Shown: positions 12,364-24,608 of the stretch, piece by piece
Numbering within the stretch: the first letter of the stretch is position 1
Layout of the letters: each line of letters opens with the position of its first letter
Assembly: GCA_014384675.1 (NCBI GenBank)
Contig: JACNFK010000020.1
Coordinates: 3,954 to 67,953, forward strand
Length of the DNA stretch: 64,000 nt
Direction of reading: 5' to 3'
Source: Candidatus Thiopontia autotrophica
GTDB lineage: Bacteria > Pseudomonadota > Gammaproteobacteria > GCF-002020875
The notes under the pieces: generated by a model
What the model was told of the DNA's origin: nothing
Database searches by the model: none
What the model saw: only the letters and a program-made list of their open reading frames with translations
Made by a program: the position numbers and the translations under genes

Positions 12364-12969
12364 TTAATTGCGGCTCGATAACACCTTGTCTATCAGGCCA
12401 TACTCAACCGACTCATCACTACTCATAAAGTTGTCACGGTCTGTATCCTTGCGAATCTGATCAATTGGCTGCCCCGTATGGTTAGCCAGGATCTTGTTCA
12501 GCCTCTCACGCACATCGAGAATCTCTTTGGCATGAATCTCGATATCTGATGCCTGCCCCTGAAAACCACCAAGAGGCTGATGAATCATCATCCTGGAGTG
12601 TGGAAGACAGAAACGTTTCTCTGCCGCCCCGCCAGCCAGTAACAGTGCCCCCATACTGGCAGCCTGACCAATACACATGGTACTTACGTCTGGCTTGATA
12701 AACTGCATGGTGTCGTAAATAGAGAGACCAGCTGTAACTGAACCACCAGGAGAGTTGATATAGAGATGAATCTCCTTGTCTGGATTCTCAGACTCCAGAA
12801 ACAGTAGCTGAGCAACCACCAGATTAGCCATCTGATCCTCAACCGGGCCCACCAGAAAGATGACTCTCTCCTTGAGTAGGCGGGAGTAAATATCGTAAGC
12901 CCTCTCCCCACGTGAGGACTGCTCTACCACCATTGGTACCATGCCTATATTCTCTATTGGTGAACTCAT
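12364..12969 (-). CDS. clpP: ATP-dependent Clp protease proteolytic subunit ClpP
   Basis: 201 aa with the catalytic triad context [14 protein letters not shown] ... MIHQPLGG, collinear with E. coli ClpP. Confidence 0.97.
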
Positions 12970-13020
12970 ACTCTTATCTCTTCCTCGGTTAAATGGTTCA
13001 ATGCTACCTGTATGCGATAC

Positions 13021-14325
13021 CTAAGCAGTACGATTGGCATTAGCCTTCTGCATCAGCTCCTCGAACTCCATACTCTCGTCCGACACTGTAGCATCATTCA
13101 TCACCAGATCCACAATCTGCTCCTCCAGAGCCAGATTCTGCACACCCTCCAGCTGCTGTGGATTCTTCTCATACCACTCAATAACCTCCTGTGGATCCTC
13201 ATAACCTGAAGCCATGGTCTCAATATGCTTCTTCACCTTGGTTGGATCAACCTGGACATTATGTTCACGGGTAATCTCAGCCAGAATCAGCCCCAGCTTG
13301 ACTCTACGCTCTGCCTGCTCCTTGAACAGGTCAGGACTCAGAACTCCCTCCTGCCCCTGCATCTGCTGCTGCATGTTTTCAGCCATACGGGCAGCCTCTT
13401 CATCAATCAGTGGGGTTGGAATATCAAAGCCGTGCGTCTCATATAGCCCGTCCATCACCTGATTCTTGTTCACCTGGCTAACTGCCTGATCACACTCGCG
13501 CTGCATGTTTTCACGAATCTGGGTACGGAAAGCCTCAACCCCGCCCTCGGTTACGCCATACTTGGTAATAAACTCATCATCTATCTCTGGAAGCACCGCC
13601 TCGGAGACACTGTTTACCGTGATCGCAAACTGGGCTGGTTTGCCAGCCAAATCCTCTGCCGCATAGTCATCAGGGAAGGTGACATCAATACTCTTCTCCT
13701 CACCAGCCTTCATCCCGGCAATACCCTCTTCAAAGCCTGCAATCATTGAACCGGATCCCAGAGTTACCGGCACCCCTTCAGCAGAGCCTCGGTCAAACTC
13801 CTCACCATCAACAGTTCCAACAAAATCTATCACTACCTGATCACCATCGGCTGCTGCTCGCTCAACCTCGCCCCAGCTCTGTTGCTGGCTACGCAGATTG
13901 TCGATCATCTTGTCCATGTCATCATCACCAATCTCAACAACAGGCTTCTCTACCTTGATATCTGCAAACGATGCGATCTCAAACTCTGGATAGATCTCAA
14001 ATGTGGCCTTGTAGGTGAGGTCCTTACCCGCTGCTATCTCTTCCGGATCAATCTTTGGAGCTCCCGCCGGAGTAAGATTCTCCTTGGTGACCGCCTCACC
14101 AAAACTGGCCTGAATCACCTCTCCTGCAACCTCGTGGAGAACTGACTCCCCAAAACGCTTCTTGACTACCGCCATTGGCACTTTTCCAGGACGAAAACCA
14201 TTCAGTTTGGCCGTATTTTTCAGTCGGTTGAGACGATCCGCAACCTCCTTGTCAACACGCTCCGCAGGAACAGTAATTGTAATTGTGCGCTCTAGCCCTT
14301 GGGTTGTTTCTACAGATACTTCCAT
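13021..14325 (-). CDS. tig: trigger factor
   Basis: [28 protein letters not shown] parallels E. coli Tig [28 protein letters not shown]. Start at 14325 rather than the track start 14427, which would add 34 non-conserved residues. Confidence 0.93.
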   Translation of the reverse strand: [434 protein letters not shown]

Positions 14326-14630
14326 GTCTACTCTCGATTCCGTGGTTGAAAGCCGCGTATTGTACCCCAAAATCTCGCTCTGGCAGTACCCTAAAAAACC
14401 AATCATGGCTAGAATGTACAGTTTCATCCTGGAAGAGCAAATTTAACCTGAATCCTCCAGATGATCGTGCGTATAATGTGCAACATATTGATTCATAGAG
14501 CGAATTCTCGACTGAGCATAATCCTTGTTGTGATTTCCGAAGAATAAAATATCACTATATGAATCAAGAGGTTGGTGTATAACAGGTGGGAGCACCTAGA
14601 GAATTCAGGCTTAACATGGAGGTCAACAAT

Positions 14631-16571
14631 ATGAGCAGTGGAAAAACTTACCCGGTTAATAGTGATTTTGCGGCACAGGCCAACATCACCGCTGAACAGT
14701 ACGAGGAGATGTATCAAAAATCTGTGGCTGACCCTGAGGAGTTCTGGGCAGAGCAGGCATCTAGCTACCTCACCTGGTTCAAGCCGTGGGAGACCACACT
14801 TGACTGGGATTATAGTAATGACGTCCATATAAACTGGTTCAAGGGTGGCAAACTCAACGCCTCATACAACTGTCTTGATCGCCACCTGAAGGATCGTGGT
14901 GATCAGATTGCAATTATCTGGGAGGGGGATGACCCCAATGAGGATCGCAAGATAACCTACAGGGAACTCCATTCCGAGGTCAGTCAATTTGCCAATGTGC
15001 TCAAAGCACGTGGGGTAGAAAAGGGAGACCGAGTCTCCATATATATGCCGATGGTTCCAGAGGCTGCTGTAGCAATGCTTGCCTGCACCCGTATTGGTGC
15101 CATCCACTCTGTAGTGTTTGGCGGATTCTCTCCGGATGCACTGCGTGATCGCATCCTTGACTCTGATTGCCGGGTGGTGATTACCGCTGACCAGAGCATT
15201 CGTGGCGGCAAAAAGGTTCCGCTTAAACAGAATGCAGACCAGGCCATGGCCGCCTGCCCCAATGTCCATACCTCTATTGTGGTAAGACGTGGCGGAGAGC
15301 CTGTTGAGTGGAATGCGGAGAGAGATATCTGGTACCACGAAGCGATGGAGGATGCACCTACCAAGTGCCCTCCTGAGGAGATGGATGCCGAGGATCCAAT
15401 GTTTATCCTCTACACCTCTGGCTCTACCGGAAAACCAAAAGGGGTCCAACACACAACTGGTGGTTATATGCTCCATGCTGCCATTACCCACAAACTGGTC
15501 TTTGACTACAAGGATGGCGAAGTCTACTGGTGCACCGCCGACGTGGGATGGGTAACCGGACACACATATATACTCTATGGCCCCCTGGCTAATGGCGCCA
15601 CCACCATGATGTTTGAGGGCATCCCCACCTACCCCACCGTCTCCCGCTTCTGGGATGTTTGTGACAAGCACAGTGTAGCCAGCTTCTATACTGCACCCAC
15701 CGCAATTCGTGCACTAATGGCTGCTGGTGATGAGCCGGTGCGAAGCACATCCAGAAAATCACTGCGACTGCTCGGGACTGTAGGCGAACCGATTAATCCG
15801 GAGGCCTGGGAGTGGTACTACAATGTGGTTGGTGATGGGCGCTGCCCAATTGTTGATACCTGGTGGCAGACCGAGACCGGTGGCCATATGATTACCCCTC
15901 TGCCAGGGGCACATCAACTTAAACCGGGCTCTGCAAGCCGTCCCTTCTTTGGGGTGCAGCCAGTACTGCTGGATGATGAGGGTAACGAGCTTGAAGGGGC
16001 AACCTCAGGCAATCTGGCAATGAAATTTCCGTGGCCAGGGCAGATGCGCACCCTATATGGCGACCATAACCGTTTTATCGAAACCTATTTCAGCCAGTTC
16101 CCCGGATACTATTTCAGTGGTGATGGTGCCCGCCGTGATGAGGATGGATACTGGTGGATTACCGGTCGGGTTGATGATGTACTCAATGTCTCTGGTCACC
16201 GTCTGGGAACCGCAGAAATTGAATCAGCCCTCGTACTGCATGAACAGGTGGCCGAAGCTGCTGTGGTTGGATACCCACATGAAATTACCGGACAGGGAAT
16301 ATACGCCTTTGTCACCCTGATGCAGGAAACCGAAAGCAGTGACTCACTAAAAGATGAGTTGGTGGCGCTTGTACGCAAGGAGATTGGACCAATTGCCAAG
16401 GTTAACATTATCCAGTGGGCCCCAGGGCTGCCAAAAACACGTTCCGGCAAGATCATGCGCCGAATTCTACGCAAGATTGCAGCTAACGAGCTGGAAGATC
16501 TGGGAGACACCTCTACCCTGGCTGACCCCTCTGTGGTTGAGGAGTTAATCAACAATCGGGAGAGTGGATAA
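14631..16571 (+). CDS. acs: acetyl-coenzyme A synthetase (AMP-forming)
   Basis: AMP-binding motif [11 protein letters not shown], a conserved WWQTETGG segment, and C-terminal catalytic Lys context [14 protein letters not shown]. Start at MSSGKTYPV with GGAGG 10 nt upstream. Confidence 0.95.
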
Positions 16572-16819: not shown

Positions 16820-17482
16820 ATGCATAGAAAGCCGATCACTTTCATGTTTATTGCCATGTTGTCACCACTATCCCATGGGTGGGATGGGTTTGATCGTGGA
16901 GGTGAGGCCGAGGAGGCAATGACGCTTACACCGGATATAGATAACGGCAAAAAAATATATGATACCTGCTCTCTATGCCACACCTCGCAGGGCTGGGGAA
17001 TGGCTCCAGGAATTGGTCAATACCGTGTCCCGGGAACATATCCACAACTGGCCGGCCAGCACAAGTCGGTTCTGATCAAACAACTAACCGATATTCGCCA
17101 GCTTAATCGCGACAATCCGGTCATGTATCCATTTACTCTGAACAGATATATTGGTAATGCTCAGGATATAGCAGATGTCACTGGATACATCACAACCCTG
17201 CCTGTTAACAGGCAAAACTACCTCGGACATGGAGACGACCTGGAGCATGGCAAAAAACTTTATCAGGACAACTGCGCTCAATGCCATGGCGACAACGGTG
17301 AGGGCGATCCGGAAAATTTTTATCCCAAACTGAACAATCAACACTACGAATACATGTTAAGACAGTTTATCTGGATCAGGGATGGCAAACGGAGAAACGC
17401 CAACAAGAAGATGGTCAAACAGATTCAAAAATTTAGCTACAGAGATATAAAAGCAGTCATTGATTACTCATCAAGATTCTAA
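16820..17482 (+). CDS. dihaem c-type cytochrome, cytochrome c4-like, periplasmic
   Basis: Two CxxCH motifs (CSLCHT, CAQCHG), YPQLAGQ and other c4-type repeat features, and an N-terminal signal peptide. GGAGG RBS. Confidence 0.85.
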   Translation: MHRKPITFMFIAMLSPLSHGWDGFDRGGEAEEAMTLTPDIDNGKKIYDTCSLCHTSQGWGMAPGIGQYRVPGTYPQLAGQHKSVLIKQLTDIRQLNRDNPVMYPFTLNRYIGNAQDIADVTGYITTLPVNRQNYLGHGDDLEHGKKLYQDNCAQCHGDNGEGDPENFYPKLNNQHYEYMLRQFIWIRDGKRRNANKKMVKQIQKFSYRDIKAVIDYSSRF

Positions 17483-17537
17483 CAAACGCGCAATAATAAC
17501 AAGATATTATAAAAACTATTAAAGGAAACTTGTGAAG

Positions 17538-18239
17538 ATGAAAAAACTATTTGTCCCACTCCTGATTTTCGTGGCAGGCATGGTTGCCCTGGGGGGCGTA
17601 AACATATTCTTTGGTGCAACCAACGAGATGGCATTCTGTACATCATGTCACTCAATGAAGGTAAATCTTGAAGAGTACAAAGAGACCGTCCATTACAAAA
17701 ACCAGTCCGGTGTGCAGACAACCTGTTCCGACTGCCACGTACCGCAGCAATTCTTCCCCAAGGTCCTTGCCAAGATCATGGCAGCCAAGGATGTATACCA
17801 CTGGGTGCTCGGTACTATTGAGCCGGATGAGTCACAACTTGTAAGTGCAGATGACAATGGAAATTGTCCGGATCTGTTTGTCCCGATCAAGGAGGGGTCC
17901 AACCTCTGCATTCCAAATTACGGGGAAGTCTATAGCGAAGATGACATGAGCGAGGAGGCGGAAGAGCGTCGAGAGGCTGCCCTGGAGAAATTCAATGCAT
18001 ATCGCTGGAAGATGGCAAACAGTGTCTGGGACAAGATGAAGGCATCCGATTCTCGCGAATGTAGAAACTGTCATGATTTCGAGAACATGGACCTTGATAT
18101 ACAGGACCGCAGTGCTCGCAAGAAACATGGTCGCGCCACAGAGAAGGGACAGACCTGTATAGATTGCCATAAGGGAATTGCCCATACAGAGCCCGACGAG
18201 CCTGAGGAGAATGAAGACGAAGAGGAAGATGAAGAATAG
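17538..18239 (+). CDS. NapC/NirT/CymA-family membrane-anchored tetrahaem cytochrome c (quinol dehydrogenase-like) with acidic insertion and tail
   Basis: N-terminal TM helix (LFVPLLIFVAGMVALGGV) and four CxxCH motifs (CTSCHS, CSDCHV, CRNCHD, CIDCHK). Collinear with E. coli NapC (FCISCHEM..CPDCHVP..CRNCHNF..CIDCHKGIAH). It carries a ~50-aa Asp/Glu-rich insertion and a poly-acidic C-terminus, EPDEPEENEDEEEDEE. Confidence 0.85.
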   Translation: MKKLFVPLLIFVAGMVALGGVNIFFGATNEMAFCTSCHSMKVNLEEYKETVHYKNQSGVQTTCSDCHVPQQFFPKVLAKIMAAKDVYHWVLGTIEPDESQLVSADDNGNCPDLFVPIKEGSNLCIPNYGEVYSEDDMSEEAEERREAALEKFNAYRWKMANSVWDKMKASDSRECRNCHDFENMDLDIQDRSARKKHGRATEKGQTCIDCHKGIAHTEPDEPEENEDEEEDEE

Positions 18240-18249
18240 GAACAGCACA

Positions 18250-19188
18250 ATGAAAAAAATCGTAATAACCCTACTCTCCATGCTCCTCTCAACTACAGCA
18301 TCCGCTGATGAGGCACTGGATAACGCCCTGCGCAGAGCAGCTGCCAATGGTGATTTTGAGGCCACTCAACAACTAATTGACAGAGGCGCGAATGTAAACA
18401 GCAGAGGAGAGCTTGGCCATACTCCGCTGATTTATGCTGCAGAGGATGGTCAAATCTCAATTGCAAAACTGCTTATTGACAGTGGCGCCCGTATTAATGA
18501 TCAGACCAAAGGTGGATATACCGCCATCTCCGCTGCTGCAGATGAGGGAAGTATCACCCTGGTAGCCCTACTATTAAGGTCAGGTGCCGACCCTCACATC
18601 AAAACCAGTAATGGAATGGATGCCCTGATGGTGGCAATCCGCAGTGGAGATGCAGATGTCATCTCCATGCTTATGGCATATAACAGCAACATTAACACCG
18701 CAGATCGCCATGGACGGACTGCTCTCATGATAGCGACAAAACAGGGGCACATTAATACTGTACACATGCTTCTTCTCGCCAGTGCGGGAATGGATATTCG
18801 TGATAAAAATGGGAAAACTGCATTGATGATGGCGGCCGAGAGCGGGAATATGGATATTATTAATGCCCTGCTCAACCGCGGGGCATCAACATCCGTCACT
18901 AATGATCACGGCGCATCAGCTCTCCACTACGCTGTCTCCAAAAGAGGGGTTGATAGCGCACTTACCATACTTAACCACGGTGCAGATATAAATGTCACCG
19001 ACCAGGATGGGTGGACACCACTAATGGAAGCGGTAGGCAGTGGCAATATGGAGCTGGCAAAACTAATGATTCAACGAGGCGCAAAGACAGATGTGCGTGA
19101 TCATGAGGGGCTTGATCTGTTACTGATTTCAAAAATGAATCGCCATCATCAACTAACAGAATATCTTCGCACAATCATAAAAAAATAA
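18250..19188 (+). CDS. secreted ankyrin-repeat protein (about 8 ANK repeats) with signal peptide
   Basis: MKKIVITLLSMLLSTTASA signal peptide, then tandem ~33-aa repeats with the TPLxxAAxxGHxxxVxxLLxxGA consensus. Start chosen at the ATG with an AGGAA RBS, 72 nt inside the track ORF. Confidence 0.85.
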   Translation: MKKIVITLLSMLLSTTASADEALDNALRRAAANGDFEATQQLIDRGANVNSRGELGHTPLIYAAEDGQISIAKLLIDSGARINDQTKGGYTAISAAADEGSITLVALLLRSGADPHIKTSNGMDALMVAIRSGDADVISMLMAYNSNINTADRHGRTALMIATKQGHINTVHMLLLASAGMDIRDKNGKTALMMAAESGNMDIINALLNRGASTSVTNDHGASALHYAVSKRGVDSALTILNHGADINVTDQDGWTPLMEAVGSGNMELAKLMIQRGAKTDVRDHEGLDLLLISKMNRHHQLTEYLRTIIKK

Positions 19189-19386
19189 TTTTACTGAAAC
19201 GCTGCAGCCACACCCTGAATGCAGTTTCAGTAAACGCATATAAGAAGATACAGATACTCTAATCTGCCTCTATTTGCTTGCACAAGAAGTTCTTTTTATA
19301 TTATTATTGCTCTGCTCCGGGTTGAGAGACTTGGAGCAAATTAATATTAATTTTAACAAAATCTCTAATTAACTTTAGGAGGAGAT

Positions 19387-19986
19387 ATGAAAGCAACTAA
19401 ACTTGCTATGGCCATCATTGGTGGCTGCGCAATTAGTCTGTCTGTATCTGCAGGCGGAAATATGACAGGGGCTGATGCATCAATGCTATCCAATACCTGT
19501 GCCGGTTGTCACGGTACTGATGGCGGTAGTTCTGGACCAGCTATTCCATCCATTGGCGGAATGTCTGCAACCTACATTACAGATATGATGAATGCATACA
19601 AGTCGGGTGATACTGTCAGTACCATTATGGGACGTATTGCCAAGGGCTACAGCGAAGATGAGATCGGCGCAATGGCTAACTACTTCGCCGAGCAATCACA
19701 GACTCGTGCAGATCAGTCTTTTGACAAGGCCAAGGCTGCCAAGGGTATGAAACTGCATGACAAGTACTGTGAGAAGTGTCACTCAGAGGGTGGATCTCTA
19801 GCCGACGATGACTCCGGTATTCTTGCTGGTCAGCTAACACCTTACCTTCACTACAGCATGGAAGACTTCGATAATGGAGATCGCTCTATGCCCGAGAAGA
19901 TGAAGAAAAAGGTCAAGAAGCTGAACAAGAAGGAAGGTGCTGCCGGTATGGAAGCCATCCTCAACTACTACGCCAGTCAGCGTTAA
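19387..19986 (+). CDS. fccA: flavocytochrome c sulfide dehydrogenase, dihaem cytochrome subunit FccA
   Basis: Signal peptide, two CxxCH motifs (CAGCHG, CEKCHS), and the expected size (199 aa). Lies immediately upstream of the flavoprotein subunit. GGAGG RBS. Confidence 0.85.
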   Translation: MKATKLAMAIIGGCAISLSVSAGGNMTGADASMLSNTCAGCHGTDGGSSGPAIPSIGGMSATYITDMMNAYKSGDTVSTIMGRIAKGYSEDEIGAMANYFAEQSQTRADQSFDKAKAAKGMKLHDKYCEKCHSEGGSLADDDSGILAGQLTPYLHYSMEDFDNGDRSMPEKMKKKVKKLNKKEGAAGMEAILNYYASQR

Positions 19987-20001
19987 GGAGGAGCAAATAA
20001 A

Positions 20002-21324
20002 ATGAGTAAATTTAATCGTAGAGATTTTCTGAAGGTTTCTGGTGGAGCAGTTGGTGCTGCAACCATTGCCACTTCTGGGCTATCTTTTGCAAACACCAAC
20101 CTTGATTCGCGCGGTCGTGTTGTGGTTGTTGGTGGTGGTCTGGGTGGCGCAACTGCAGCAAAATACATTAAGCGTGCCGATGCATCCATTGATGTGACTA
20201 TCATTGAGCCAAACAAGACCTATTACACCGGCTTTACCAGTAACCTGACCCTGACCGGAATGGTTACCATGGATCAGCTTGGTCACACCTATGAGGGTCT
20301 TACTGCAATGGGTATCAAGGTTGTTCATGACTCTGTTACCGAGATTGGTGACAAGGCCGTGAAGACTGCTGGTGGTGGAAGCTACGGCTTTGACCGTTGC
20401 GTGGTATCTCCAGGTGTTGACTTCAAGTTTGTTGATGGACACAGTGAAGAGGTTGCCAACAAGTCTGTAACTCACGCATACAAGTCTGGTCATCAGATGA
20501 ACCTTCTTGGTGAGCAGATTCGTGGCATGAAGGATGGTGGTACTGTTGTAATTGCAGCACCTCGCAACCCATTCCGTTGCCCTCCTGGACCTTACGAGCG
20601 TACCAGCCAGATCGCTTCCTACCTCAAGACTCACAATCCAAAATCCAAGATTATTGTCCTTGATCCAAAGGGTAAGTTCTCCAAGTTTGGCCTGTTCCGT
20701 GAGGCATGGAATATCCATTATGGATTTGATCCAGCTGCAGACGGTAGCAATGATGGCTCTATCATTGAGTGGAGAAAGATGACTCCTCTGGAAGAGATTG
20801 ATGCAGCTACAAACACTGCTATCACCGAGGTTGACGAGGTTAAGGGTGACGTTCTTAACGTTATTCCTGACCAGAAGGCTGGCCATGTTGCACATGTAAA
20901 TGGTCTGGTTGATGGTGACTGGTGTCCTGTAAATCTGCAGACTTTTGAGTCCAAGAAGCGTGCAAACATCCACGTCATTGGTGACTCCAGTGCAGCCAAG
21001 GGGCTTCCAAAGTCCGGTTATGCGGCGGCATCTGAAGCGAAGGTAACGGCAGCGGCTATTGTTGCAGCATTGAATGGTAACTCTGCTCCAATCCCGGCCT
21101 ACACCAACACCTGCTACAGTGTGGTTGCACCAAATGATGCGTTCTCCGTAGCAGCGGTATACCAGTTGGCTGCAGATCACTCGAAGGTCATGAAGGTCTC
21201 CGGTGGTCTTACCCCAAGCGGTAAAAACCGTAATCCAGCACATCGCGAACGTGAAGTAGCGTATGCACTGAGCTGGTATGAGAACATTACTACTGATGCA
21301 TTTAGCGACGGCAAGAAGCTATAA
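20002..21324 (+). CDS. fccB: flavocytochrome c sulfide dehydrogenase, FAD-binding flavoprotein subunit FccB (Tat-exported)
   Basis: Twin-arginine signal NRRDFLKVSGGAVGAATIA, FAD fold VVVVGGGLGGATAAKYI, and pyridine-nucleotide disulfide oxidoreductase family features with Cys residues. Confidence 0.88.
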   Translation: MSKFNRRDFLKVSGGAVGAATIATSGLSFANTNLDSRGRVVVVGGGLGGATAAKYIKRADASIDVTIIEPNKTYYTGFTSNLTLTGMVTMDQLGHTYEGLTAMGIKVVHDSVTEIGDKAVKTAGGGSYGFDRCVVSPGVDFKFVDGHSEEVANKSVTHAYKSGHQMNLLGEQIRGMKDGGTVVIAAPRNPFRCPPGPYERTSQIASYLKTHNPKSKIIVLDPKGKFSKFGLFREAWNIHYGFDPAADGSNDGSIIEWRKMTPLEEIDAATNTAITEVDEVKGDVLNVIPDQKAGHVAHVNGLVDGDWCPVNLQTFESKKRANIHVIGDSSAAKGLPKSGYAAASEAKVTAAAIVAALNGNSAPIPAYTNTCYSVVAPNDAFSVAAVYQLAADHSKVMKVSGGLTPSGKNRNPAHREREVAYALSWYENITTDAFSDGKKL

Positions 21325-21348
21325 GCTCAGATTAACGTTCTGAAAACA

Positions 21349-21386
21349 GGCCCTCAGAAGGAGACTTCTGAGGGCTTTTTTATTAT
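21349..21386 (+). terminator. rho-independent terminator of the fccAB operon
   Basis: Perfect 11-bp stem GCCCTCAGAAG / CTTCTGAGGGC with a GAGA tetraloop, followed by TTTTTTATT. Confidence 0.88.
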
Positions 21387-21518
21387 GAATCCGTGCGAAA
21401 GTAATAGCGACCTCCCACGAGTAGCCGTCTGTGGCCTGGACGACCACAGTCGAGCGACACAGGGATGTGCTTGAGCATGCTGCATGGGTGATATCGCTAT
21501 TACTTTCGCACGGATTCA
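21386..21518. repeat. 133-bp MITE-like element bounded by perfect 25-bp terminal inverted repeats
   Basis: Left arm TGAATCCGTGCGAAAGTAATAGCGA (21386-21410) is the exact reverse complement of the right arm TCGCTATTACTTTCGCACGGATTCA (21494-21518). The internal segment has a further hairpin, CTGTGG..CCACAG. No coding capacity. Confidence 0.7.
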
Positions 21519-21525
21519 TACCAAC

Positions 21526-22959
21526 ATGGCCAGACTATTATTTGGATTGCTCTTGATCATTAGCAGCACGGCAGAGTCCGGCCGCCAGGGATACGAGGTG
21601 GTGACCATGAACAATGGCAACATCTTCCATGGCACTATTGCTCATGAGGCTTTCGCTATTGAGACCAGTTATGGTCTGGTCACAATTCCCTACTCTTTTG
21701 TTGCATCACTTACCCCTGGCCAGAAAGGTGGTACTGACCAGATTACAACTCATCCTGGAGAGCGTTTCAGCGGAACAATACAGGGTGATGAATTTACTAT
21801 TTTACGATTTGATCAACCTGCACTCCCTCTGGACCTGGCAGACATTTCAGAGATTATCTTCTCCAGGAAAACTGTACGTTCCCCACCACCGATACCTGTT
21901 GACTCAATCAGTACAGACAATGGAGACCGCTTCACTGCAACCATCTCAACCTCATCAATTCTGCTTGCAGGAGAGGATGGGCTCTCCATAATCCCCATCC
22001 AGCAGCTCCATATAATCGATCTTGAGGAGATAGAGGATCAGCTATCAGTTAACATTACCGACAATAATGGCAAGATACGACAAGGGGTAGTTAGAAACTC
22101 CTCAATACAGGCTGTGACCCGTTATGGAGACAGGGTTGATATCCCTTCATCACAGCTCTCACTGCTTGCAGTTAATGTCCATCACGGCAGAGCGCCATCT
22201 CTGTTTAATTATCGTCAACAACTTAACCCTGCAACCCAGTTTCATGATCTGCTATATCAGGATATTTCTGCTCCAGAGATGATCGCCTTGCGTGGAGGAG
22301 ACTTTACCAGAGGCTCAAGAAATAAGGATGGTGATAACGATGAGCTCCCTCTTCAACCAATGCGCCTTAGGCCATTTGCCATAGGTCAGTATGAGGTCAC
22401 TTTTGATGAGTATGATCTCTTCTGCGAGGTAACCGGTCATGATAAACCAGATGATAGCGGCTGGGGACGTGGTAACCGACCGGTTGTAAATGTGTCATGG
22501 AACGATGCAACTGCCTATACCGAGTGGCTTGCAACCAAAACACGCCAGCCATATCGCCTTCCATCTGATGCTGAGTGGGAGTATGCCGCGCGTGGTGGGA
22601 CAGAAACCGTGTTCTGGTGGGGTGATCAAGCGCCAACCACGGAGTCCAATTGTGATGGCTGTGGCAGCATATGGGATGGTGAGCGTACCGCACCTGTAGG
22701 GCGCTTCAGGCCAAACCTGTTTGGACTGCATGATACTGCCGGTAATGTATTCGAGATTGTTGCTGACTGTTGGTCTGACACCTATTCTGATGCCCCCATT
22801 GATGGCTCACCATATCTCAAGGGTGGCTGTGGAAAACGGGTTATCCGTGGTGGGGCATGGAGCTTTCCTCCACACGAGGTACGTTCCGCCAACCGCTGGC
22901 GCGACTTCCCAAGCAGAAAAAGTGATGATACCGGTTTTCGTGTTGCTCGCGATCTGTAG
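21526..22959 (+). CDS. FGE-sulfatase (formylglycine-generating enzyme / SUMF1 / PvdO / EgtB-C) domain protein with signal peptide and four N-terminal tandem repeats
   Basis: The C-terminal ~270 aa carry hallmark FGE-family motifs (RGGDFTRGS, NVSWNDATAYTEWL, RLPSDAEWEYAARGG, RVIRGGAWSFPP, GFRVARDL). The N-terminus has four ~45-aa repeats with G-[DE]-R-F-x-G-T-I ... IP-x-S consensus. Start at MARLLFGLLLIISSTAES, not the track start inside the IR element. Confidence 0.8.
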   Translation: MARLLFGLLLIISSTAESGRQGYEVVTMNNGNIFHGTIAHEAFAIETSYGLVTIPYSFVASLTPGQKGGTDQITTHPGERFSGTIQGDEFTILRFDQPALPLDLADISEIIFSRKTVRSPPPIPVDSISTDNGDRFTATISTSSILLAGEDGLSIIPIQQLHIIDLEEIEDQLSVNITDNNGKIRQGVVRNSSIQAVTRYGDRVDIPSSQLSLLAVNVHHGRAPSLFNYRQQLNPATQFHDLLYQDISAPEMIALRGGDFTRGSRNKDGDNDELPLQPMRLRPFAIGQYEVTFDEYDLFCEVTGHDKPDDSGWGRGNRPVVNVSWNDATAYTEWLATKTRQPYRLPSDAEWEYAARGGTETVFWWGDQAPTTESNCDGCGSIWDGERTAPVGRFRPNLFGLHDTAGNVFEIVADCWSDTYSDAPIDGSPYLKGGCGKRVIRGGAWSFPPHEVRSANRWRDFPSRKSDDTGFRVARDL

Positions 22960-23047
22960 CCAGGGAACCTCTAAAAAAGCTTAATGGATTCATACTACTC
23001 TACTCCCAACAACAGAAGTACAGGTGGGTGATGACGGCTGGATACCA

Positions 23048-23076
23048 CCTCTCCAGATATATCTTATCTGGAGAGG
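23048..23076. terminator. strong bidirectional hairpin between convergent genes
   Basis: 12-bp perfect stem CCTCTCCAGATA / TATCTGGAGAGG with a 5-nt loop. No clean U-tract on either side. Confidence 0.4.
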
Positions 23077-23093
23077 TTATGAAGAAACTATTC

Positions 23094-23420
23094 TTATTTT
23101 GACTGTGCCACCATGTAGTCAACCACAGCCTTCAGTGCATCATCACTCAGGCCTGTTCCACCACGCGGCATCATCAGTGGGTTTGTTGGAGAGCCATTGA
23201 TTGCGGTTGCATAGAGTGCATCCATACCTTTGGCAATACGTGGTGCCCAGGCAGTCTTGTCACCCACACCAGGAGCACCTACTGCGGCTGCAGTTGCAGG
23301 GCTGTGACAGGCAAAACATCCAGCGGCATAATCACCGGCAGCATCCGCAGATACATTTGTTGAGACTATTATTGCAGTGACTGCACTCAATGCCACCAGT
23401 AGACTATTTCTGCTCTTCAT
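23094..23420 (-). CDS. monohaem cytochrome c5-family protein, periplasmic
   Basis: Signal peptide, a single CFACHS, and a C-terminal GGTGLSDDALKAVVDYM typical of cytochrome c5/c555. Confidence 0.8.
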   Translation of the reverse strand: MKSRNSLLVALSAVTAIIVSTNVSADAAGDYAAGCFACHSPATAAAVGAPGVGDKTAWAPRIAKGMDALYATAINGSPTNPLMMPRGGTGLSDDALKAVVDYMVAQSK

Positions 23421-23653
23421 ATTTTCTTCCTTAAACGTGTTATGTTATTGAATGACTCGCTAGGTTACTCAATTATTCCAAACTAGTCCATATTTAATAG
23501 ATCACTTCATTGCGTGGCATACGGGATATAGGCGTACCCCCGTTGCTGCAAGGAGACCAGCTCAAGAATCCCAAAGATTGATCCGGAGCATACCATTTTA
23601 TTCCTGTAGCTCTGCAAAATTCAGCCCTGCGAATATGGTAAAGTCGTCATTCC

Positions 23654-24314: not shown

Positions 24315-24608
24315 ATGTTTTCACAGAACATAAGCTGCGAAGATGCGCAGCGGATGATAAAAGATGAGGATGGGCAACTGGTAGATGTTCGCAGTCCGAT
24401 GGAGTACGCACAAGGATGCCTTCCTGATGCGGTAAATGTCCCACTGCAATCAATTCAGGTGGCCGAGGAGATGCTCGATAAAGAGCGTCCAATAGTCCTC
24501 TATTGCGTTACCGGAGCCCGCACCCGTATGGCAAAAACATACCTGGAATCTATGGGCTTCGATAATGTTCATGATCTTGGTTCATTCAGGAACTATATGA
24601 GCTGCTAA
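24315..24608 (+). CDS. single-domain rhodanese-like sulfurtransferase
   Basis: ~98 aa with an active-site Cys loop, IVLYCVTGARTRMA. AGGAA RBS. Confidence 0.8.
   Translation: MFSQNISCEDAQRMIKDEDGQLVDVRSPMEYAQGCLPDAVNVPLQSIQVAEEMLDKERPIVLYCVTGARTRMAKTYLESMGFDNVHDLGSFRNYMSC

Follow-up and report, generated by a model that had tools for sequence, protein, structure and literature searches.

The fccAB genes for flavocytochrome c sulfide dehydrogenase (FCSD) described here are accompanied by genes for a c4-like dihaem cytochrome, a tetrahaem cytochrome of a NapC/NirT subfamily (the NapC-like protein) and a periplasmic ankyrin-repeat protein (Ank), and a functional linkage of these three proteins with FccAB is well supported. 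Recurrence of this arrangement in dozens of other sulfur oxidisers suggests that electrons from sulfide reach the quinone pool by a path that is so far uncharacterised. Taken as one package, we give an even chance to the view that the five genes form a single functional unit, organized as two proposed transcription units (c4-napC-ank and fccAB-terminator), in which electrons would pass from FccAB via the NapC-like protein to ubiquinone, with the c4-like cytochrome as a side exit and Ank in a docking role.

FCSD has been known for decades, but its cellular role and physiological electron acceptor are still unsettled. A conserved NapC-type cytochrome beside fccAB offers a testable answer to the acceptor question, namely entry at the level of quinone. 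If true, this would account for how FccAB could sustain both reverse electron flow and nitrate reduction that depends on quinol, and estimates of the energy gained by the abundant sulfur oxidisers of redoxclines and symbioses would shift. It would also be a clear instance of pairing between a dehydrogenase and a member of the NapC/NirT family.

Gene content of the region

The window, meaning the whole 64-kb stretch of DNA that was analysed, comes from 'Ca. Thiopontia autotrophica', a marine sulfur oxidiser of the BS-GSO2 clade. This clade is uncultured and a major sulfur oxidiser in euxinic basins; the host is a denitrifying sulfur oxidiser with rDsr and CBB in which most Sox genes are missing. 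Gene identities (Table 1) were assigned using ORF calls together with Pfam, NCBIfam and PDB sequence searches, and the relatives compared comprised contigs of the same strain (L001-L006), a 94%-related genome (L007), a sister genome (L009) and L008.

Table 1. Features of the fcc region and its flank, in window coordinates.
Feature	Position	Strand	Basis and remarks
c4-like dihaem cytochrome c, signal peptide	16820..17482	+	2 CXXCH, Pfam, PDB; conserved module member
NapC/NirT-subfamily membrane-anchored tetrahaem cytochrome	17532..18239	+	PF03264, 4 CXXCH
Secreted (periplasmic) ankyrin-repeat protein (Ank)	18250..19188	+	Ank_2, visible signal peptide
ank-fccA spacer with promoter-like site and AT-rich palindrome	19189..19386	+	Promoter scan, palindrome search, conservation
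fccA, dihaem cytochrome subunit of FCSD	19387..19986	+	PDB matches, 2 CXXCH
fccB, TAT-exported flavoprotein subunit	20002..21324	+	Pfam, PDB matches
Intrinsic terminator closing the fccAB unit	21348..21377	+	Stem and T-run
Inverted-repeat hairpin, 137 nt	21384..21520		Between terminator and FGE start codon
Secreted FGE-sulfatase-domain protein	21526..22959	+	PF03781; outside conserved module
Small monohaem class I cytochrome c (c-555/c-551/c5-like)	23094..23420	-	PDB matches; outside conserved module

Every gene named in the initial annotation was recovered within positions 16820-23420. Its count of five haem-protein genes is reduced to four c-type cytochrome genes, which together carry nine CXXCH motifs, because FccB is a flavoprotein subunit lacking a haem motif. 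Four of the five CXXCH-bearing ORFs among 51 ORFs fall within seven consecutive genes (P ~0.016, permutation); conserved synteny is a much stronger argument for linkage than this statistic of chance clustering. The suggestion of seven linked genes spanning 6.6 kb did not hold, as L009 lacks the FGE protein, the small monohaem cytochrome and the hairpin, and in L007 they are replaced or altered. These three are lineage-specific cargo outside the module.

The FGE protein belongs to its family by domain match (PF03781, 1.6e-54 across residues 263-489), its N-terminal 245 amino acids having no family match, and it scored 154 bits against the PvdO equivalog (cut-off 500) and likewise far below the EgtB and GldK cut-offs. 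Full-length orthologues with ~50% identity occur in Sedimenticola and Thiohalobacter, in unrelated neighbourhoods beside pfk/DUF2339 or men genes; these neighbourhoods and the absence from L009 led us to reject it as a module member. The small cytochrome, previously called a cytochrome c5, is matched better by c-555 (4j20, 4.4e-14) and c-551 (2zon_G, 2.5e-13) than by c5 (1cc5, 2.5e-5). It had no NCBIfam match and was not found beside the module in the other surveyed loci; in L007 the position is occupied by a SoxA-like gene.

The hairpin has perfect 27-nt arms (fold -74 kcal/mol, z = -8.3) and occurs only in the same-strain contigs L001-L006, the corresponding site in L007 being empty. The label MITE-like fits insofar as the element is short, non-coding and bounded by terminal inverted repeats. 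Dispersed copies and a target-site duplication, the other hallmarks, were not found: the hairpin is single-copy in the 64-kb window, two metagenome contig scans returned no paired copies (no match to an exact 26-mer; 36 single-arm matches to a 17-mer, compatible with chance), and the TA flanks are ambiguous as a duplication.

Conserved synteny of the module

The synteny survey was seeded from the NapC-like protein and covered 63 loci of sulfur oxidisers, such that all fractions refer to NapC-like loci and not to fccAB operons. The NapC-like gene was partnered by ank in 55 loci, by fccA and/or fccB in 47 and by a c4-like gene in 26. Where 4 kb or more of upstream and 5 kb or more of downstream sequence was available (37 loci), 36 loci had at least one partner. 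The commonest orders were napC>ank>fccA>fccB (19 loci) and the same order plus a convergent c4-like gene (10 loci). The same gene order was observed in more than 40 genomes with flanks that differ between taxa, including Chromatiaceae, Sedimenticola, Thiodiazotropha, Thiomicrorhabdus, tubeworm and nematode symbionts and two alphaproteobacteria. Clustering of all ORFs from -6 to +8 kb of the NapC-like gene revealed no sixth conserved neighbour. The triad napC-ank-c4like was found in 6-8 genomes with no fccAB within 10 kb, and the NapC-like protein therefore has a role independent of adjacent fccAB.

Expression in Allochromatium vinosum points in the same direction as gene order. Under electron-donor limitation, with sulfide scarce, Alvin_1092-1095 (FccB, FccA, Ankyrin and NapC/NirT) were co-induced 72x, 175x, 28x and 42x, respectively, while the flanking genes were not induced; the authors called the function of the tetrahaem protein unresolved (PMC11267869). 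Our full-text literature search retrieved no functional link between NapC/NirT, ankyrin and FccAB other than the co-induction table of that paper. Recurrent order and co-induction thus uphold the proposal of a functional tie between the NapC-like cytochrome and fccAB.

The ank-fccA spacer (~199 nt) contains a promoter-like site at 19279-19307 and an AT-rich palindrome, AAATTAATATTAATTT, conserved in the window, L007 and L009, and on this sequence evidence fccAB probably has its own promoter. Such separation would fit a chance placement of unrelated cytochrome genes near fccAB, yet that explanation is contradicted by synteny, the order being repeated in more than 40 genomes whose flanks differ, as well as by the co-induction in A. 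vinosum, and we find it scarcely credible.

fccAB encodes a genuine FCSD-type flavocytochrome

FccA carries two CXXCH motifs and matched 3vrd_A (2.6e-55) and 1fcd_C (5.2e-55), and its gene ends 16 nt before fccB, the adjacent-cytochrome-subunit arrangement of the dihaem, Chromatium type of FCSD. As a flavoprotein of this enzyme, FccB matched PF21706 (9.9e-41), PF09242 (1.1e-22) and 1fcd_A (1.9e-116) and bears a TAT signal. The redox cysteine pair is kept, with Cys161 present in 43 of 43 and Cys337 in 41 of 41 sequences (FRCPPGPYER and NTCYS). The PDB matches and this cysteine pair confirm the fcc genes as FCSD-type and exclude the thiosulfate-dehydrogenase type, the alternative identity named at the outset. 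The FAD-linking Cys42 is replaced by Gly (YYTGFTSN) only in the window, L007, L008 and L009 (4 of 43), with Cys in the other 39. The window FccB lacks the residue for a covalent 8-alpha-S-cysteinyl FAD, and in this clade the FAD is presumably bound non-covalently. The terminator behind fccB consists of a 13-bp stem, in which 7 pairs are GC, and a T-run downstream of it; it is conserved in L007.

The NapC-like protein represents a distinct subfamily

The NapC-like protein scored 205.5 bits against PF03264 (6.4e-61; cut-off 24.1). Residues 6-28 are hydrophobic and would form an N-terminal membrane helix, CXXCH motifs are located at residues 36, 65, 177 and 209, and four further His (H54, H90, H199 and H218) are invariant in the subfamily alignment; one such helix and four motifs with predicted bis-His ligation are characteristic of the NapC/NirT family. 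The quinol-site residues Met49, Lys82 and Asp89 of NrfH align with the invariant M42, K81 and D87 of the subfamily. The protein falls below the NapC equivalog cut-offs (NF007906, 177.7 vs 349; TIGR02161, 198.6 vs 310.6), no nap genes are present within the 64-kb window, and in the tree the subfamily forms a long-branched monophyletic group, apart from the Ruegeria NapC of napA-G-H-B-C operons. An identity as NapC sensu stricto was rejected on these three grounds. By these comparisons of sequence, the protein is a member of a distinct Fcc/Ank-associated NapC/NirT subfamily, separate from nap-operon NapC.

Two further features set the protein apart. An insert of 53 amino acids (~residues 97-150) is specific to the window's clade, and an acidic C-tail (EPDEPEE...) is conserved. 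The AlphaFold model was poor (mean pLDDT 61, pTM 0.34) and unsuited to a fold search; of the whole protein, only the insert (residues ~100-130, pLDDT 75-81) looks ordered, forming a small hairpin bounded by Cys112 and Cys126. We dropped the idea of the acidic tail docking electrostatically onto a basic partner because the pI values of the c4-like protein, FccA, FccB and Ank (4.2 to 10.4 across loci) follow no consistent pattern.

The c4-like cytochrome and the ankyrin protein

The c4-like protein resembles cytochrome c4 in having two class I domains (Cytochrom_C, 1.3e-20), each with a CXXCH motif (residues 50 and 152) and a downstream Met, the candidate ligands read from the sequence being those in PVMYPF and KKMVKQ. 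It matched cytochrome c4 8uf3 (E=1.9e-15), the c4 structures 6q2u and 1etp, and the TsdB part of 5lo9 (4e-8), and its only cysteines are the four of its CXXCH motifs. With such His/Met-type motifs, it is probably a high-potential carrier. Orthologues with 44-70% identity adjoin the module in the 26 loci noted above, either upstream or convergent downstream of fccB. Identity to FccA of just 17-20% rules out an origin as a recent FccA paralogue.

Ank matched Ank_2 with 224 bits (2.6e-67), and a signal peptide is visible in its N-terminus, MKKIVITLLSMLLSTTASA. A signal-peptide heuristic was passed by 48 of 55 Ank proteins; of the seven that did not pass, two have an ORF start that is over-extended, and visual inspection of the other five showed a hydrophobic stretch resembling a signal. 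The A. vinosum counterpart, Alvin_1094, is annotated as Ankyrin with a signal peptide at 1-27. In the 55 of 63 loci that have it, ank lies immediately 3' of the NapC-like gene, the gap being 11 nt in the window and in the median. This tight spacing, the standing of ankyrin repeats as protein-protein interaction modules, and membrane-bound FCSDs, reported from Thiobacillus sp. W5 and Ectothiorhodospira vacuolata, would all suit a role for the NapC-like protein and Ank in keeping FccAB at the membrane or aiding its maturation, with no electron exchange with quinone. A pure anchor, however, would need none of the features that are invariant in the NapC-like subfamily (four distal His, all four haem motifs, and Met, Lys and Asp at the quinone site), making this explanation improbable.

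Direction of electron flow

We propose that FccAB would oxidise periplasmic sulfide at its FAD/disulfide site and load its dihaem subunit, and that the NapC-like cytochrome, with its family quinone-site residues, would accept these low-potential electrons and reduce ubiquinone. Flow towards quinone is exergonic, since S0/HS- lies at ~-270 mV and UQ at ~+100 mV. Soluble FccAB would thereby become functionally equivalent to SQR, with sulfide electrons entering at the quinone level. Entry there is required by the bc1 complex, by nitrate reductase that depends on quinol and for reverse electron flow to NAD+. The c4-like cytochrome would offer a second, high-potential way out, to a terminal oxidase or to Nir, and Ank may act as a docking or assembly partner. 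The direction from FccAB via the NapC-like protein to quinone, with the c4-like side exit, we infer from thermodynamics and analogy only; physical interaction, the role of Ank and haem potentials are likewise deduced.

The initial annotation had envisaged a chain from FccAB through soluble cytochromes to the NapC-like protein. This chain is unlikely as written, since the c4-like motifs are typical of high-potential carriers, and such a carrier could not reduce quinone through a NapC-type protein; direct transfer from FccA to the NapC-like protein, with the c4-like cytochrome on a separate branch, would fit better. A more specific claim, that FccAB, the NapC/NirT subfamily and Ank constitute a membrane-docked multi-haem sulfide:quinone oxidoreductase in which the NapC-like protein is the long-sought physiological acceptor of FccAB and normally runs "backwards" as a quinone reductase, is advanced tentatively, somewhat short of an even chance.

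To our knowledge, all characterised NapC/NirT proteins are quinol dehydrogenases, which counts against a quinone reductase. So does the finding that ImoA oxidised quinol in vivo in a heterologous host (PMC9600427). The ImoA/PmcA/MtoD system is at the same time a precedent for a lithotroph NapC/NirT protein operating with a low-potential periplasmic cytochrome, while a high-potential cytochrome serves the oxidase (PMC13390432; PMC9600427). Three other observations speak against the quinone-reductase route: sulfide oxidation was normal in A. vinosum fccAB knockouts, the triad exists without fccAB, and a high-potential c4 partner better suits transfer from quinol via NapC to c4.

A rival scheme keeps the conventional direction. 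The NapC-like protein would be a quinol dehydrogenase feeding the c4-like cytochrome, as a bc1 bypass to cbb3 oxidase or Nir, FccAB would donate in parallel to that c4 pool, and clustering would reflect a common acceptor and regulon rather than reduction of the NapC-like protein by FccAB. The behaviour of characterised family members, the fccAB-free triad and the c4-type His/Met motifs agree with this scheme. However, fccAB accompanies the NapC-like gene more often than the c4-like gene does (47 vs 26 of 63), including in 19 loci and A. vinosum with no c4-like gene nearby, and a non-pumping bc1 bypass lacks an obvious reason for 40-fold co-induction with FccAB when sulfide is scarce. We regard this scheme as rather unlikely. 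A variant in which quinol, via the NapC-like protein, drives FccAB as a polysulfide or sulfur reductase for anoxic use of stored sulfur retains the conventional direction, parallels CymA feeding the fumarate-reductase flavocytochrome of Shewanella, and would suit the many hosts that store sulfur. Since the reaction is strongly endergonic from ubiquinol (~+100 mV to -270 mV), the module is also present in aerobic and denitrifying chemolithotrophs, and induction in A. vinosum occurs under electron-donor limitation, we consider this variant very improbable.

Comparison with known systems

The fcc locus of A. vinosum matches the window in four genes and their order, in the Ank signal peptide and in the four haem motifs of the tetrahaem protein; its genes are co-regulated, and its FccAB is 1fcd-type. 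In contrast to the window, it has no adjacent c4-like gene and is flanked by a hypothetical gene and nadA, and its FccB keeps Cys42 where the window clade has Gly along with the 53-aa tetrahaem insert. NapC, NirT, CymA and NrfH share with the NapC-like protein one N-terminal membrane helix, four CXXCH motifs, the first being CXXCHxM, and the conserved Lys and Asp that NrfH has in its quinol site, and identity to Ruegeria nap-operon NapC is 41-43%. Unlike them, the NapC-like protein does not reach the equivalog cut-offs for NapC and TorC, forms a separate clade and has a conserved acidic C-tail; in no surveyed locus did its gene belong to an operon of the nap, nir, tor or nrf type, lying instead beside ankyrin, fccAB and c4 genes. 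Since its partner is a dehydrogenase, the direction is likely reversed relative to these proteins.

ImoA-PmcA-MtoD of Sideroxydans lithotrophicus likewise includes a lithotroph NapC/NirT tetrahaem protein for which transfer of periplasmic electrons to quinone has been proposed, but there the donor is Fe(II) via an outer-membrane porin-cytochrome, with no flavoprotein and no ankyrin protein. SQR has the same proposed net reaction, from sulfide to quinone on the periplasmic side, and FccB is homologous to it (8dhk, 1.4e-10); whereas SQR is one membrane flavoprotein that reduces quinone directly, the path proposed here would run via six haems and two extra proteins. TsdA-TsdB similarly pairs a periplasmic sulfur dehydrogenase with a c4-family dihaem carrier, but the c4-like protein has no TsdA-type Cys-ligated haem, and the enzyme here is an FCSD.

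Gene content and layout of the locus

Seven proteins are encoded between 16.8 and 23.4 kb of the window, as summarized in the table below. Since FccA and FccB match the Allochromatium vinosum flavocytochrome c structure, we regard fccAB as genuine FCSD genes, in agreement with the initial annotation. Its count of five haem-protein genes needed correction: FccB carries no haem motif, and hence the region comprises 4 cytochrome genes (9 CXXCH motifs) and 1 flavoprotein gene. Similarly, the small cytochrome that had been named a cytochrome c5 is nearer to c-555 and c-551 in its PDB similarity.

Genes and sequence elements of the locus (window coordinates)
Feature	Position	Basis or remark
Dihaem cytochrome, c4 type, signal peptide	16820-17482	ORF, Pfam and PDB matches
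Tetrahaem cytochrome, NapC/NirT family, membrane-anchored	17532-18239	ORF and Pfam match; under the NapC equivalog cut-offs of NCBIfam
Ankyrin-repeat protein (ank), secreted	18250-19188	ORF and Pfam match
AT-rich palindrome	19325-19366	Palindrome scan
fccA	19387-19986	PDB match to A. vinosum flavocytochrome c, E = 5e-55
fccB	20002-21324	PDB match to A. vinosum flavocytochrome c, E = 2e-116
Intrinsic terminator, strong	21348-21377	
137-nt inverted repeat	21384-21520	
FGE-sulfatase-domain protein, secreted	21526-22959	ORF and Pfam match
Monohaem cytochrome, small	23094-23420	Opposite strand to the other six genes

Gaps of 49 nt and 10 nt, respectively, separate the c4-like from the NapC-like gene and the NapC-like gene from ank. 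A 199-nt spacer precedes fccA; in it, a promoter scan located a promoter-like site, and a palindrome scan an AT-rich palindrome that is conserved. The palindrome, AAATTAATATTAATTT, lies ~40 nt 5' of the fccA start, is kept at the equivalent site in two Thiopontia-like relatives (loci L007 and L009), and may represent a regulator site. The strong terminator follows 3' of fccB.

Conserved synteny across sulfur oxidisers

The window NapC-like protein was aligned to its homologues, 80 related genomic loci were fetched, and all window proteins were searched against these. None of the module partners was present in the 17 lowest-ranked loci, which were set apart (16 relatives from Ruegeria/Rhodobacteraceae, Roseibium and Paracoccus at 40-43% identity, together with locus L075). 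The gene in the one such locus that was inspected sits within a napA-G-H-B-C operon, and is thus a true NapC. The other 63 loci formed a single clade on a long branch of a neighbour-joining tree. Within this clade, ank lay directly 3' of the NapC-like gene in 55 loci (median gap 11 nt), fccA and/or fccB was found in 47, and 26 had an orthologue of the c4-like gene (44-70% identity); because the survey was seeded from the NapC-like protein, these counts describe NapC-like loci rather than a share of all fccAB operons. At least one partner was present in 36 of the 37 loci having at least 4 kb of upstream and at least 5 kb of downstream sequence. The commonest gene order was napC>ank>fccA>fccB (19 loci), followed in a further 10 loci by a convergent c4-like gene; the window clade differs in carrying the c4-like gene upstream. 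Hosts include Chromatiaceae (Lamprocystis, Thiohalocapsa), Sedimenticola, Thiodiazotropha, the Escarpia endosymbiont, Thiosymbion, Thiomargarita, Thiomicrorhabdus, Thermopetrobacter and a Hyphomicrobiaceae MAG.

Clustering of all ORFs from -6 to +8 kb of the NapC-like gene revealed no conserved family other than the five, and the surrounding genes vary from taxon to taxon, indicating that the five genes travel as a self-contained module. Partial variants also occur: napC-ank-c4like without fccAB in six loci, c4like-napC-ank without fccAB in two more, and napC-fccAB without ank in five. These identify the NapC-like protein as the hub, with which any partner can occur alone. In one Chromatiaceae MAG (L057, 11739-15934), napC-ank is followed by two tandem fccAB pairs and then a c4-like gene.

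A variable slot 3' of fccB

The FGE protein and the small cytochrome had originally been counted as members of the island. In L009 (81% NapC identity), fccB is followed directly by DUF3301, leaving the slot (13191-13319) empty, while in L007 (94%) the slot (12808-15413) holds an FGE gene and then a SoxA-like 292-aa cytochrome that replaces the small cytochrome. The window slot (21325-23650) contains a hairpin, the FGE gene and the c-555-like cytochrome. Based on these differences, we consider the slot to be variable cargo and exclude both genes from the module. The FGE protein (477 aa) has a 245-aa N-terminal region without a family match. Full-length orthologues (~50% identity) occur in many sulfur-oxidising Gammaproteobacteria, and their neighbourhood is not conserved; those in Sedimenticola, Thiohalobacter and Chromatiales adjoin pfk/DUF2339 or menaquinone genes.

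The inverted repeat, which lies 3' of the terminator and ahead of the FGE start codon, is present as annotated, but its designation as a MITE is unproven: it is missing from L007, and no repeated copies were found in the window or the metagenome contigs. Contigs L003, L005 and L006, each assembled independently from short reads of the same strain, all end at an identical point within this repeat, suggesting that the hairpin disrupts assembly.

Features of the NapC-like protein and FccB

The NapC-like protein possesses one N-terminal helix, four CXXCH motifs and four further invariant His residues. Invariant M42, K81 and D87 align with the NrfH quinol-site residues (Met of CXXCHxM, Lys82 and Asp89), so that, as judged from sequence, it retains all defining features of quinone-interacting NapC/NirT proteins. 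It scores under the NapC and TorC equivalog cut-offs, and an acidic tail, EPDEPEE(D/E)n, is common to the whole subfamily. A 53-residue insert (residues ~97-150) between haems 2 and 3, with conserved cysteines C112 and C126, was seen only in the Thiopontia-like clade (homologues P0001-P0019). The AlphaFold model is poor overall (pLDDT 61); for the insert it predicts a small hairpin, located between Cys112 and Cys126 (local pLDDT 75-81).

Cys42 of the A. vinosum structure 1fcd is the cysteine of the covalent FAD thioether in FCSD. The corresponding position (window FccB residue 77) is Gly in only 4 of 43 module-linked FccBs, namely those of the window, L007, L008 and L009, and Cys is retained in the other 39. 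The catalytic cysteines are intact in the Gly-bearing proteins, and the flavin of the Thiopontia-like clade is probably non-covalent.

Host and genomic surroundings

NCBI and UniRef list the exact sequences of the window FccB and PEP carboxylase under 'Candidatus Thiopontia autotrophica', a member of the BS-GSO2 clade of euxinic basins. BS-GSO2 is described as an rDsr/CBB autotroph with complete denitrification that lacks most Sox genes (PMC8359478). The cluster is set between two groups of housekeeping genes, lon-clpX-clpP-tig-acs and DUF3301-rhodanese-ppc-panDCB. The rhodanese (24315-24608), single-domain and devoid of a signal peptide, lies directly 5' of ppc, is also kept in L009, and belongs to the chromosomal backbone outside the module. 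A long one-strand gene run (31655-52855) encodes a fumarate-reductase-like flavoprotein, a NuoF-like protein, two 2-oxoacid:ferredoxin oxidoreductase sets, sucCD, rnfCDGEA and malate dehydrogenase; these are genes of ferredoxin-linked, rTCA-like carbon metabolism in a host described as a CBB autotroph.

Co-induction in A. vinosum and the proposed electron route

Four of the module genes have A. vinosum orthologues: Alvin_1092 (FccB), Alvin_1093 (FccA), Alvin_1094 (Ankyrin; 320 aa, signal peptide 1-27) and Alvin_1095 (NapC/NirT domain protein, four haems) (PMC11267869). On pyrite compared to dissolved sulfide these were elevated 72-, 175-, 28- and 42-fold, respectively, while flanking Alvin_1091 (3-fold, not significant) and Alvin_1096 (0.6-fold) were not induced; the authors called both function and pathway of the tetrahaem protein unresolved (PMC11267869). 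According to the literature, fccAB mutants oxidise sulfide normally, and the in vivo role of FccAB is unsettled. We consider it highly probable that the five module genes act together.

Beyond gene identity, synteny and co-induction, we infer each mechanistic step. NapC/NirT proteins normally oxidise quinol, feeding a periplasmic reductase. Unlike this usual arrangement, the conserved partner of the NapC-like protein is a dehydrogenase. With redox potentials of ~-270 mV for S0/HS- and ~+100 mV for UQ, ubiquinol-driven reversal of FccAB would be uphill by ~370 mV. Electrons passing from sulfide to FccAB, the NapC-like protein and ubiquinone would instead run downhill overall. Entry at the quinone level would also meet the needs of a denitrifying autotroph, since nitrate reductase depends on quinol, additional proton-motive force comes from the bc1 complex, and reverse flow from the quinol pool supplies NADH. 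The c4-like protein contains haem motifs of the His/Met type only, which are typical of high-potential carriers, and so is better placed on a parallel branch leading to an oxidase or Nir than in the path from FccAB to the NapC-like protein. The main alternative is conventional flow, from quinol to the NapC-like and then the c4-like protein, with FccAB as a parallel donor. Triads without fccAB favour this, but the tie between fccAB and the NapC-like gene is stronger and c4-independent, which speaks against it, and we judge conventional flow to be improbable. The full model, including flow from sulfide through FccAB and the NapC-like protein to quinone, we regard as evenly poised between right and wrong.

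Comparison with known systems

The component families are already known, and the four-gene arrangement is annotated in a model organism. In the literature searched, outside which lies a 2018 survey of FCSD gene context, the status of the tetrahaem protein as a NapC/NirT subfamily appears to be undescribed, as does its conserved link to ankyrin, fccAB and c4-like genes across many sulfur oxidisers. ImoA, a NapC/NirT protein, oxidised quinol in Shewanella, which urges caution regarding the direction of flow (PMC9600427). The same split as that proposed here has been put forward for Sideroxydans, in which ImoA is placed with low-potential PmcA, and high-potential MtoD is assigned to the oxidase (PMC13390432).
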